From NCBI GenBank assembly GCA_964016885.1, contig OZ024750.1, positions 22,444,001 through 22,508,000 of the forward strand: a stretch of 64,000 nucleotides of DNA. Reading direction: 5' to 3'. The notes below the pieces were generated by a model. The model was not told the origin of the DNA and searched no databases. It saw nothing but the letters and a program-made list of their open reading frames with translations. Position 1 is the first letter of the stretch, and each line of letters opens with the position of its first letter. Below, piece after piece: positions 13,530 through 20,285 of this stretch. A program made the translations under genes and the position numbers. This DNA is from Eledone cirrhosa (taxonomy: Eukaryota).

Positions 13530-14019
13530 TAAGGTGTTAGAGAGGGGTAGAAGAAATAGGAAGAGAGAGAAAGAGTGGTGGGAGAGAGATAGAGAAGAAA
13601 AATGGAAAAAAATATAGAGAGGGTAAGGAAGAGAGGGAGGGGTGAGGAAGAGGAGAAGAGAAAGAGAGGAGGGAGAGGGGAGTAAGAGAGATGGTAAAGA
13701 GATAGATAGAGAGAGGGAGAAAGTAAGTTCGCTGGGCCAGAGGTTGTACTGTGTTAATGAGTGAACCTCTACAAATTAGTCAGGTGTGATCTACAATAGT
13801 TATATGTCATGTAGATATAGACATGGCTGACTGGTTAAGATGTTAGCTTCTCAATCATGAGATCCTGGTTTCAATCACATTGCGTGGCATCTTGGGCAGA
13901 TGTTTTTACCATAGCCTTGGCCGTAGACGCATGCCGGGAAATTAAGTAGACAGAAACAGTTTTGAGGCCCGTCAGATGGTTGTAGCTGTAATTCAAAAGG
14001 TCAACATTATCGCACAGAG

Positions 14020-14597
14020 TAATAATTGTTTCTACTTTTGGCACAAGGTCAACAATTATCTCAGTGCATTACTGGTACTTTATTTTGTCGACCCCGTAAG
14101 GATGAAAGGCAAAATTAACCTCGGCGGGATTTGAACTCAAACCATAAAGGGACGTAACTCTATGCTGGAAAGCATGGTGCCTGACCCTCTACCGATACTG
14201 CCAATCCACAGTGTAATAATTGTTTCTACGTTTGGCACAAGGCCAGCAATTACCCAGTACATTACTGGTACTTTATTTTGTCGACCCCGTAAGGATGAAA
14301 GGCAAAATTAACCTCGGCGGGATTTGAACTCAAACCATAAAGGGACGTAACTCTATGCTGGAAAGCATGGTGCCTGACCCTCTACCGATACTGCCAATCC
14401 ACAGTGTAATAATTGTTTCTACGTTTGGCGCAAGGCCAGCAATTACCCAGTGTATTACTGGTACTTTATTTTATCGACCCCGTAAGGATGAAAGGCAAAG
14501 TTAACCTCGGCGGGATTTGAACTCAGAATGGCAAGGGCCGTAACTCTATGCGTCACAGCATGGCGTCCGACCCTCTACCGATACTGCCAATCCACCG
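14020..14597 (-). mobile_element. Three tandem SINE family 1 copies nested in a family 2 SINE
   Basis: Units are separated by CAG(T/A)GTAATAAT; the host SINE runs 13820-14015 and resumes at ~14610-14745. Confidence 0.9.
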
Positions 14598-15871
14598 CAG
14601 TGTAATAATGAATCTCGAGAATTACTTTATGCATACACGTGTCTGTGGCATACTCAGCAACTTAATCGTTAATTTCACGAGCAGGCTGATTTGTTGACTG
14701 AACAGCTGGGACACTCATCGTTGAATCCGACGGAAGTCCATTTGTTGTTCATGTGTGTGTAGAGAGAGAGAGAGACCGAAAGAGAGACAGAGAGAGAAAG
14801 TGATAGCCAGGAATGTGTCTGTGATATGTCTAAAGATTATATCTTTAATAGGCTACACGTGTCTATGGATTGGATTACTCAACCATGTACACGTAGTTCA
14901 TGAGCTAGACGTTACGTTCAGTTGATCAAACAACTGAATGATCATCGTCGAATTCGACGGAGAATCGTTTTATTGGAATAGACTTAACTATGTAAGAATG
15001 ATTTCAATGTCTCTCTTTGTTCATGTGTTACGTGAGGTGTGTATATGGCACTCGAGAAGGAAAGATTATCATGAGTATAGGGCGGGGTTGTTAAAGTTGT
15101 TCACAAGTAGAATATTAATGAGCAGGTATGGCCGAGTGGTTAAGAAGTTCGCTTCGCAGTCATGAGGTCCTGAGTTCGATCTTACTGCGAGGTACCGTTA
15201 ATAAGTGTCATTTACCATATTCTCGGGTCGATCGAAACCTTGTCAATAAGTTTGGGTAGACGGAAACTGTTTGGAAGTCTGTCGAGAGGATTGTATCTGT
15301 AATTCAAATATTTGTCACATATTTGTCACACTAATTGGGCTTGGGAATCACATTATTGGTACACGTGTCTGTGGAACACTCAACCAGTCACACGAATTGG
15401 ACGTTCAGTTGATTGAATATCATCCATCAGTGTGCCGTAGGAAGAGAGTGGGTTACATAACCGAATGCTGGGGTACACCAGGTGTCAGCTTAAAGAACCC
15501 CTCCCCCACCTTCGTTGGCGCAAGTTACTATGCTATGGTTTGACCTTAAGTTTTCTGTTCGCATTGCCATAATGGTGTGGTAGATCACAGCCCAGAGTAT
15601 AGGAGTTCTCTCCCTTGCTTGCTACTCGGTAGAGCATCGGACAACATATTTACGGAGTGTGGGATCTATAAAAAATAAAGTACCAGTAACGCACTGGAGT
15701 CGATTTAATCGACTTTCTCCTTCTCTTCAAATTACTGGCCTTGTGCCAAATGCAGAAACCATTATGTAAACATCCAAAAGTTTCGGTATTACATAGTTCC
15801 CCAACAGATTTGTCATCGCCAATATCATCACCGTCAGTCCCAATTTCGTCATCATCAATTTAAATTTCATT

Positions 15872-16698: not shown

Positions 16699-16729
16699 AG
16701 AACAAAAGATGGTTAAAAGAGTTCCATGT

Positions 16730-16798
16730 ATTTTATTATGCGCATTTCAAAAACAAATATCATCATGCAATAATATTTGTGTTTTCATCAGATAAAAC
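16730..16798 (-). ncRNA. Intact minimal type I hammerhead with palindromic stem III
   Basis: Minus strand: GTTTTAT-CTGATGA-AAACACAAATAT..ATATTTGTTTTT-GAA-ATGCGCAT-A-ATAAAAT. Confidence 0.8.
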
Positions 16799-16953
16799 AG
16801 GAAGACATGATATGAAGGTTAAAAAACACTTGTGGATAGTGCAGTTTTAAATCAACATATATATTATGTATACTCCAGTCCTACAAACTGTAGAGTGCTT
16901 CTTATCCGATATCTGCATTGCTTTATTGTACTACAATAAAACTCACCTCCTAC

Positions 16954-16989
<36 letters not shown>

Positions 16990-17363
16990 ATATATATGAA
17001 AAGAGCCAGCTGTCAAAACGGCCGGAGCTCAGCCGTCGGGGTCCTGACTCTTTTCCTATTACCCACTCTACTACCCTAAGTATCGAGTACTCTGGTGCGT
17101 TATAGTCCACCTGGTATCTTACCACAACTTCTTTATTATATATATATATATATATATATAGGAACGAGTAGGACCCCGAGGGCTGAGCTCAAACCGTTTC
17201 GACGGCTAATTCTGGACCAGAATTCGGGTTCAGAATTAGCCGTCGAAACGGCTTGAGCTCAGCCGTCGGGGTCCAACTCGTTCCTATTACCCACTCTACT
17301 ACCCTAAGTATTGAGTACTTTGGTGCGTTATGGTCCACTTGGTTCCTTACCACATTTCCTTCG

Positions 17364-17416
<53 letters not shown>

Positions 17417-17430
17417 TTTTAATATAGATG

Positions 17431-17481
17431 AGATTCTACAGGACTAGAACTGTTTCATTCATTAGAAATCATCAGGAATCT
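17431..17481 (-). ncRNA. Type I hammerhead ribozyme
   Basis: Minus strand: AGATTC-CTGATGA-T TTC taat GAA T-GAA-ACAG ttctagtc CTGT-A-GAATCT; GUA triplet. Confidence 0.85.
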
Positions 17482-18164
17482 GGGTATCAAAAAATAAAAA
17501 TGGTATTTATAGGTCTCTACAAGTGGTAGGAGAGGGTGGGGGAGTGGGATGGGTGTAGGTCATTGGTTGATAGAAAAGGGAATTCATTAAAAACTAGTGG
17601 TTACCTCCGATTCAACCCGGAATAACGTATATATATATATATATGATGGCTGCAATATTCGATTTCGGGTTATGCCATCGCTTGATACTTAAGCATGATC
17701 ATAACGATCGTGGCTTTCTAGTCCTGTTAGAGACTTGCCTAAGGCCAGCAATGCCAATGGTGGAAGCCTGGATGAAATATATGAGACTGATGGGAACTAG
17801 ATTGAGACTAACAATGATGTAACTGAGGATGACGATGTCGAATTTGTGACTGACATAGAGACAATTGACTTTAAACACTGTTAAATTACGAGGTTTGTTA
17901 CAGGGTTGTTACACTTGTCATATTTAGACTACCAGACTTTATGTATAGACCATGTAGACATTTTTGTCTCACTATGTTGTTGGTATACACACACATAAAC
18001 ATATACATATTATATGGGTGGTTAGAGATAAAGATAAATAGTTACGTAAATAGTCAGCCAGGTCATTTGATCGATATATATATATATATATATGTGAAAA
18101 AATGGGGAGAATATATATATATATATATATATATTACAAGTAGAAAGCAACTGTGATACACACA

Positions 18165-18204
<40 letters not shown>

Positions 18205-18783
18205 CACATATATTATATATACACATATACACATAATAATAGTATCAATAGAGTTAACCAAAGATAATTAAAATTGCCAATCAATAATATATTTAAGCTC
18301 AATGTGTCATAGATAGAAATATAGAAGAGATATCATTTAAGGGGTGAAGAAAATGGTGACCTATATAACAGAGAGAATAATGATTTAAGCAATCTATCCC
18401 ATCATCTGAATTTGTTATATATTGATTCATATATATAAATATATATATATAAAGATAGACAGACAAATTCCTAGATAGATAGAGAGACAGTCAGACAAAT
18501 ATAAAGAGTAGCACAACAGCCTCGTTTTCATTTCATTCTCTCTCCGAAGCTCCAACACGAGCTAAATACCAACAAGGAGAGTGTGGAGCCCTATATTAAG
18601 GCTTCCAGTCATCCGTTTCATGTCGTAACAGGTCGAAAATCACTAAATATAACTTTAATGATTTGTCAAACAACGTCCTTGTACCAGTTTAAAACGGGAT
18701 TTCGTTCCGACAATTTAATCTCGCTTTTTTAATCTGCTGGCTTCTGTCGGTCGCTGTTCAGATGTTGATATTTCATCCAGAAA

Positions 18784-18867
<84 letters not shown>

Positions 18868-18875
18868 GCGAGCAC

Positions 18876-18913
<38 letters not shown>

Positions 18914-19094
18914 TTACGTACGCACACACACACACACGCACTTACGTACGCACACAGGCACAGAGGCACACACACACACACACAGGCACAGACACACACA
19001 CACAGACACACGCATACACACAGAGGCGCACACATACACACAGAGGCACAGACACACACACATACACATACACACACACACACATTCTTTTATG

Positions 19095-19260
19095 TTTTTA
19101 CTTGTTTTAGTCATTAGACTGCGGCCATGCTGGGGCACAACCATGATTTGGTTGATCATATCGGCCTCATCACTCCTTGTTTTAAAGTCCAGCGGTTGTT
19201 TTATCGATCTCCTTTTGCCAATCGGCTAAGTTAAGCGACAGTTAAAAACAGACTGATACA
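19095..19260 (-). mobile_element. Older SINE with GTGCCCCAGCATGGCCGCAGTC..GACTAAAACAAGTAAA 3' tail
   Basis: The same tail occurs at ~9200-9260, 25300-25400 and 36305-36450. Confidence 0.65.
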
Positions 19261-19310
19261 AACGTAATCACGAGCGCGCGCACACACAGACTCACTCTCA
19301 CAAACACACA

Positions 19311-19399
<89 letters not shown>

Positions 19400-19734
19400 A
19401 AAACAAAGAGAGCGTGGTAAGATACCAGGTGGACTATAACGCACCAGAGTATTCAATACTTGGGGGTAGTAGAGTGGGTAATATGAAAAGATTCAGGACC
19501 CCGACGGCTGAGCTCCGGCCGTTTCAACAGCTATTTCTGAACAGCGTTCAGAAATAGCTCTCGAAACGCTAAGTCTCTCTTCCTGCTATTCCAAGCGTTA
19601 ACTTAATCTATACCTTCCATATACTGTACTTATTGTGTTGTTTTTTTCTGTTTACCTTTTAAATACATACATATATATCCTATATATATATATATATATA
19701 TACATATATATGTCTATATATATATATGTATACG

Positions 19735-19798
<64 letters not shown>

Positions 19799-19930
19799 TA
19801 TATATATATATGTATACGTATGTGTATATATATATATATATACGTAGGTCCCGGGTTGAGTCGGGGATAACCACAGTAAGTAAGGTACTCAATACATGGC
19901 AGAGTAAAATTTTTTTTATTTTATAGAAGG

Positions 19931-19981
19931 AGCTTCTACAGGACTAGTGCTGTTTCATTCAGATGAAATCTTCAGGAAGCT
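19931..19981 (-). ncRNA. Type I hammerhead ribozyme, paralogue of 17431-17481
   Basis: Minus strand: AGCTTC-CTGAAGA-T TTC atct GAA T-GAA-ACAG cactagtc CTGT-A-GAAGCT; downstream AATAAA, then a 3' tail ending in (TA)n at ~19843. Confidence 0.85.
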
Positions 19982-20285
19982 GGGTGTCATATTAAGTTCT
20001 GGTATTTATACATTTAGGTAGTGGTAAGGGAGGGGTGGGGGATGGGGGGGGGGGATTGTTTGGGGTGTGATGGTATTTAGATACACAGGACCACTTCATG
20101 GCACAGGCCGTTTTTCTTTGGGGAGTGGTCAATTAGCCAGAGTGCTTTTTTGAAATAAATAAATAAGTAAATAAATAAATAAATAAATGAATAAATAAAT
20201 AAATAAATAAATAAATAAAAAAAAAAAATAAATAAATAAAATAAATAAATAAAAACCCCAAGAATAGTAATTCAACAGATATATA

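Follow-up and report, generated by a model that had tools for sequence, protein, structure and literature searches.

Hammerhead motifs with a U·U mismatch in Eledone cirrhosa: probable 3′ ends of Hydra-clade Penelope-like retrotransposons and possible weak, assisted ribozymes

Two similar hammerhead motifs lie on the minus strand of the 64,000-nt stretch of Eledone cirrhosa DNA analysed here (the window), and each has U opposite U at positions 10.1 and 11.1. Do they represent a new class of ribozyme, what carries them, and is RNA cleavage the reason for their upkeep? We favour the view, with a probability of about 0.8, that they are U·U hammerheads of two subfamilies of Hydra-clade Penelope-like elements (PLEs) and weak cleavers of tandem precursor RNA, assisted by dimerization or by protein.

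By descriptor, both motifs have a 6-bp stem I, the core CUGANGA and a GUA site (Table 1). Stem II is UUC/GAA with a tetraloop, followed by GAAA, and stem III (ACAG/CUGU) encloses an 8-nt loop with CUAG at its centre. The residues of the type I core are present in both copies (C3, U4, G5, A6, N7, G8, A9; G12, A13, A14; A15.1-U16.1; H17). In the predicted fold three stems surround the core and the ends lie in stem I, stem II being weak. A Watson-Crick R10.1-Y11.1 pair is missing from both, its place taken by U·U, a known tolerated natural variant. The sequence-only reading had described this mismatch, as well as the CTAG palindrome in the stem III loop, and both descriptions hold. The descriptor finds three motifs in the window and none in 300 dinucleotide shuffles. 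Rfam gives no hammerhead match at E<=10 in 17415-17625; over the whole window, the best 150 of its 297 matches are microsatellite-driven miRNA matches below the gathering score.

The two copies differ at 8 of 51 positions, and no pair is broken. One stem I pair is A-U in one copy and C-G in the other. The remaining differences fall, as had been claimed, at N7 and in the loops (three bases of loop II and two of loop III). What had been called a double compensatory change is indeed two-sided, but it concerns a single base pair, hence one event. Of the two loop III differences, one is confined to the subfamily B copy in the window; TACTAGTC is found in 27 of 30 subfamily-B loci.

Table 1. Coordinates of the motifs, element copies and arrays (window positions unless another location is given)
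Feature	Position	Strand	Remarks
Type I hammerhead motif, subfamily A	17431..17481	minus	Descriptor fit; U10.1 at 17468, U11.1 at 17457; loop III 17449-17442; predicted cut site between 17437 and 17436
5′-truncated 3′ end (pLTR part), subfamily A	17415..17596	minus	Ends at short-tail terminus into (TA)n
TATA-like box, subfamily A copy	17504-17511		
Inverted long-tail piece at 5′ truncation	17597..17627	plus	Usual PLE inverted junction
Type I hammerhead motif, subfamily B	19931..19981	minus	Descriptor fit; U10.1 at 19968, U11.1 at 19957; predicted cut site between 19937 and 19936
3′ end, subfamily B	19843..20280	minus	3′ UTR end, hammerhead, ~88-nt tail ending in (TA)n
TATA-like box, subfamily B copy	20003-20010		
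Hammerhead-shaped motif, third Hydra lineage	4262..4343	minus	Minimal motif 4273-4323
Further U·U type I motif, another family	9462-9500	minus	Compact, GUAC loop III; absent from the sequence-only reading
Hammerhead-like motif, other family	16729-16799	minus	
Hammerhead-like motif, other family	9598-9662	minus	
Hammerhead-like motif, other family	4685-4730	plus	
Hammerhead-like motif, other family	3143-3221	minus	
Abundant (TA)n-inserted element end	17000-17362	plus	1826 candidates
Same element end	19400-19580	minus	
Same element end	near 7212, 38353, 59040		
Tandem arrays	55746-58537, 42627-44104, 14013-14609, 44403-44788, 63424-64000		33-bp x85, 25-bp-based and ~193-bp dispersed-repeat copies
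78-bp hammerhead array	C28, ~30,496,700-30,873,700		16/16 sampled stretches in array (L232-L245, L250, L251)
8-unit piece, same junction as C28	C1, L249:3270-3850		
Independent 3-unit arrays	L254 (C27), L255 (C4)		69-80-bp periods

What, then, carries the motifs? Their sequence surroundings make it very probable that both are the 3′ ends of truncated copies, belonging to sister subfamilies (A and B) of a Hydra-clade Penelope-like retrotransposon. The subfamily A copy is about 180 nt long and 98% identical to loci L010 and L061; the subfamily B copy, of about 440 nt with an approximate upstream end, is 88-96% identical to subfamily-B loci over about 450 nt. The window is rich in microsatellites, and the searches covered the whole 3.0-Gb genome. 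They gave 609 candidates for subfamily A (40 scored; 41 other matches at 97-99%) and 1026 for subfamily B (40 scored, at 97-99% identity). Both subfamilies are young and heavily copied.

At two loci (L030/L061 and, in subfamily B, L055) the tail downstream of the hammerhead continues into an open reading frame. That of L061 is a single ORF of 684 aa with a reverse transcriptase followed, at the C-terminus, by a GIY-YIG endonuclease, in a copy that has an apparent frame shift near residue 656. Its motifs are RIRWR at 36 (RWK-type, with R for K), SDKT at 115 (DKT, not DKG), YRDD at 347, the CxCX5C linker CNCLNKEAC at 567 and YIGMT at 603. The subfamily B ORF is 72-82% identical to that of subfamily A, and CxxC and CxH are present in the subfamily-B locus L045 and in a third lineage represented at 4273-4323. 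Such ORF motifs, together with targeting of (TA)n and a hammerhead on the sense strand close to the 3′ end, define Hydra (Craig et al., 2021; PMC8557442). Here we find CxCX5C, CxxC/CxH around E and N and no CCHH, insertion in (TA)n, a sense-strand hammerhead near the 3′ end and inverted 5′-truncated pieces. The Hydra proteins given in that study have the same motifs in a comparison by eye. Searches of the ORF against Pfam, NCBIfam and PDB yielded nothing significant, and the clade call is therefore based on motifs, not on a tree. An identity as Naiad, first taken from the ORF N-terminus, was dropped because the endonuclease sits C-terminally. A tblastn search with the family ORF across the window was empty; the window copies are dead-on-arrival fragments without an ORF.

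Two further kinds of sequence in the window deserve mention. One is the abundant (TA)n-inserted element end with 1826 candidates, which resembles the 3′ half of a hammerhead (GAAA, a stem III of 6 bp containing the palindrome GAGCUC, then GUC) and has a tail motif common to the Hydra subfamilies. The CUGANGA half is absent from the copies examined, and most copies stop or become an inverted copy 15-35 nt upstream. The other kind is represented by the motifs at 16729-16799 and 9598-9662, which have a long stem II and a palindromic stem III and recur in many loci.

Is the hammerhead structure itself maintained? The earlier claim that structure was under selection in the source elements is borne out. 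In 11 hand-picked representatives 97.2% of cells are paired, with two two-sided stem I pairs and one wobble, and the covariation score is above that of all 500 shuffles. Where the upstream sequence is intact, three states of stem I are found, AGAUUC/GAAUCU, AGCUUC/GAAGCU and GGCUUC/GAAGCC, and a C-G to U-G wobble is seen in some copies. The second compensated pair occurs in other subfamilies, which argues for upkeep of the fold by the source elements. Stem I covariation nevertheless amounts to two independent events, not many, and a count of two such pairs is matched in 315 of the 500 shuffles. Within the family, two-sided change is absent from stems II and III. A further compensated pair in stem I, GAAGUC with GACUUC, would be the third but is tentative: about 4 of 29 matches fit, and most keep the uncompensated 5′ strand. 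RNAalifold chose a different register for stem II.

Inverted junctions can mimic perfect stem I pairing, and for that reason the covariation set was confined to copies with an intact upstream box (67 copies). Long perfect extensions of stem I were discarded as artefacts of such junctions, and so were many GGCUUC 5′ strands. The contrast between variable and constant parts is stronger evidence than covariation. Among 64 copies selected with the U·U pattern, loop II comes in 20 variants, whereas 59-64 of 64 copies agree in each stem column. Loop III has one and the same sequence in 49 of the 64, and across all of its 8 positions 59-63 of 64 copies agree per column. An inverted element piece lies within 60 nt upstream of the core in 32 of these copies, in a sample whose search pattern favours them. 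This suggests that stem I is a hot spot for truncation or template switching.

If the fold is maintained, what does it do? In the reading that we prefer, active master elements would keep the hammerhead fold. Cleavage of the monomer would be slow, because stem II has only 3 bp beneath the U·U, and contact through the centred CUAG may let two copies exchange stems I and III. Reverse transcription would initiate at two internal sites on RNA left uncut at this hammerhead, and cleavage would process the tandem precursor RNA without being necessary for each insertion. We regard this mechanistic part, weak cleavage of tandem precursors that may be dimer- or protein-assisted and dispensable per insertion, as about an even bet.

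The ends of insertions bear on the question directly. None of the 64 copies ends at the predicted cut site: 30 end 10-29 nt, 1 ends 60-69 nt and 24 end 80-109 nt downstream of it, and 9 have no (TA)n within 130 nt. The templates for insertion were therefore uncleaved at this hammerhead. Among 100 matches listed, about 38 distinct loci were read by eye for their 5′ ends; one joins (TA)n exactly at the cut, and about six inverted junctions lie within 2 nt of it. The two insertion ends match the two internal reverse-transcription starts of an anole PLE, an element whose hammerhead depended on protein and could be dispensed with for insertion in vitro (Frangieh et al., 2024; PMC11167929).

The third lineage, represented in the window by the motif at 4262-4343, bears on the same question. 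The motif has an extended stem I and U·U, and had been described as unrelated to the other two with the same mismatch. The mismatch is there, but the motif is related: it belongs to another Hydra lineage, with a protein about 50% identical (the ORF, at about 51%, has CxCX5C, CxxC and CxH). The motif further departs from the two in its core, CAGAAGA (U4A) rather than CUGANGA, and in its site, CUU. Core and site are the same in 20 of 20 third-lineage loci picked by similarity. The genome has 21,716 matches of this lineage, and CAGA is present in 100 of 100 among the matches listed. Copies are 86-98% alike; the internal loop of stem I varies and the stems are mostly kept. With A in place of U4 in the CUGA turn, the motif is hammerhead-shaped and a candidate ribozyme at most. 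Mutants of the CUGA turn, besides a C3/G8 swap, are reported to have low activity (PMC9901934), and a natural U4C is mentioned (PMC3088659); a report of natural U4A was not found in the text, as distinct from the figures, of the literature searched. The change is expected to cripple catalysis, and the lineage was amplified nonetheless. No canonical-core ancestor was found among its 844 CUGA matches: the 12 examined are all inverted-junction artefacts.

One could conclude that the fold is kept for a non-catalytic job, such as protein binding, positioning of the start of reverse transcription or joining of two cDNAs, cleavage being vestigial in these Hydra lineages. Insertions that traverse the cut site fit this view, as do the lack of a dominant class starting at that site among the matches listed and the inverted junctions just upstream of the core in half of the 64 copies. 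It also draws on the third lineage, where the stems are retained despite U4A and the 12 apparent exceptions examined are artefacts, and on the anole element, whose hammerhead mutants were without effect on insertion in vitro (Frangieh et al., 2024). Against it, subfamilies A-D keep the canonical core while loop II and N7 vary, as selection for cleavage predicts, and natural U·U hammerheads do cleave (Cervera and de la Pena, 2020; PMC7229834). On balance we consider a purely non-catalytic role possible but rather unlikely.

A different alternative accepts cleavage and dispenses with assistance: the motif would be an efficient stand-alone ribozyme, the 4-bp stem III sufficing for the monomer, with loop III as a tertiary or protein contact and not a dimer interface. 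Stem III does exceed the 1-2 bp that dimer-dependent hammerheads have (Cervera and de la Pena, 2014; PMC4209133), and conservation extends to all 8 positions of loop III, the palindrome and beyond. The predicted dimer energy is also unexceptional: the stem III duplex is computed at -12.8 to -15.2 kcal/mol, against -1.1 to -1.4 for the hairpin, while duplexes with random loops have a median of -10.1 kcal/mol and 16-29% of them equal the native loop III. The predicted occupancy of the monomer, however, is low. The hammerhead fold makes up 2.8% and 0.2% of the ensemble in the two copies, and the stem II pair probabilities are 0.15-0.19 and 0.01. An obvious partner in loop 1 is lacking in subfamilies A and B, and the only fixed loop III change of subfamily B extends the palindrome to 6 nt. 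An efficient monomer is improbable in our view, and help from a dimer, with the centred CUAG conserved, is plausible.

As for the mismatch, a pattern requiring U·U has 38,708 matches in the genome against 52 for a reversed control; a few thousand of these are one tandem array, and 12 of 100 among the matches listed belong to another family. That separate U·U family has an extended stem I, an AAUU loop III and a GUU site (L066, L081, L084, L128, L136, L145). The full family pattern has 10,023 matches and its control none. When 10.1 and 11.1 are left free, U·U is read by eye in 96 of 100 among the matches listed and G-C in none; U·U is likewise found in 31 of 33 loci examined. The family consensus is therefore U·U and not a normal pair. 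The mismatch is also well represented elsewhere. It occurs in 14 of 25 Hydra families (File S2 of PMC8557442, uncommented in the available text), a natural U10.1-U11.1 has been reported and cited as the best tolerated mispair (Perreault, 2011; PMC3088659), and axolotl HHR_Amex2 comprises about 60,000 hammerheads with U·U that cleave at 22% per hour when monomeric and far better when dimeric (Cervera and de la Pena, 2020). That U10.1·U11.1 sets apart a previously unknown variant-core class, as the sequence-only reading proposed, is very improbable: at least five sequence-distinct families of this genome have it, Rfam misses the motif and PLE hammerheads are described as having a highly conserved G10.1-C11.1 (Cervera and de la Pena, 2014), but a state tabulated for Hydra, reported in nature and assayed in axolotl is not novel. 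U·U is the commonest state among the tabulated Hydra-clade hammerheads and has already been described; the families found here are new and very abundant.

Tandem units of the element do exist. Head-to-tail units, sought across the genome, amount to 2,227 junction matches, and among the matches listed most lie on C28. Five stretches sampled beyond about 30.497-30.874 Mb of C28 fall outside the array, which, if continuous, spans about 377 kb and holds about 4,800 units. It begins at a normal insertion of subfamily A whose tail is inverted, and each unit is a complete subfamily-A hammerhead. Contigs of short reads from two runs of one sample span the array junctions. The array agrees with the PLE-pLTR non-LTR retrozymes (Li et al., 2026; bioRxiv 10.64898/2026.07.22.740005) in deriving from a PLE end and in having tandem units with a type I hammerhead each; it differs from them in size, the maximum in that survey being 300 units per array, and in that no selection on the core is seen. 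Core and stems are intact in 320 of 585 aligned units; per site, the core has 0.024 substitutions and loop II has 0.014, and the array therefore looks like a neutrally decaying satellite.

How do these hammerheads compare with known systems? Like the Hydra PLEs of Craig et al. (2021), they go with RW[KR], DKT, CxCX5C and a GIY-YIG that is C-terminal and lacks CCHH, with (TA)n targets, and with a sense-strand type I hammerhead near the 3′ end. Stem III ACAG/CUGU with A17 is also found in Hydra-1_aMil, Penelope-1_NV and Penelope-1_SK. Unlike the families listed there, in which loop III has 1-3 nt, they have an 8-nt loop III with a centred palindrome, and copy numbers in the tens of thousands. 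The hammerhead of Hydra-1_oBim, the one cephalopod family listed there, is of another kind and lacks U·U. The main text of PMC13282606 is silent on ribozymes. Axolotl HHR_Amex2 shares the type I form, U·U and a copy number in the tens of thousands, and its cleavage improves in the dimer; it is located in non-autonomous tandem repeats of 350 bp, its stem III has 2 bp and its loops 1 and 2 make contact, whereas the carrier here is an autonomous PLE and stem III is 4 bp long (Cervera and de la Pena, 2020). The minimal PLE hammerheads are similar in residing in pLTRs, mostly in solitary truncated copies, and in their inverted pairs, palindromic loop III and low predicted monomer activity; they differ in that stem III is all but absent, stem II is long, a bulge precedes 10.1 and the pair is G10.1-C11.1 (Cervera and de la Pena, 2014). 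Finally, the anole Poseidon PAc resembles the Eledone elements in its two 3′ termini past the hammerhead, AT-rich targets and insertion of uncleaved RNA. It is of a different clade, its hammerhead overlaps the start codon and its tail is 30-40 bp, whereas the termini here are about 70 nt apart and upstream of the ATG (Frangieh et al., 2024).

In sum, tens of thousands of hammerhead motifs in a single genome can escape Rfam and descriptors that demand a 10.1-11.1 pair. The function of hammerheads in Penelope-like elements is a standing question, and these families provide test material. Since sister lineages with U4 and A4 have both been amplified, and natural dimers exist in the array, catalysis, the need for a dimer and dispensability become directly testable. 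A more speculative possibility, to which we lean less than to its negation, is that U4A is an unreported but tolerated core variant rescued by protein or tertiary contacts, or else that the fold is a non-catalytic signal, the first lineage having in addition seeded a satellite. If true, Eledone would offer a natural experiment on whether Penelope hammerheads must cut, with a canonical-core, palindromic-loop lineage on one side and, on the other, a U4A/CUU sister that has spread to more than 20,000 copies through several subfamilies.
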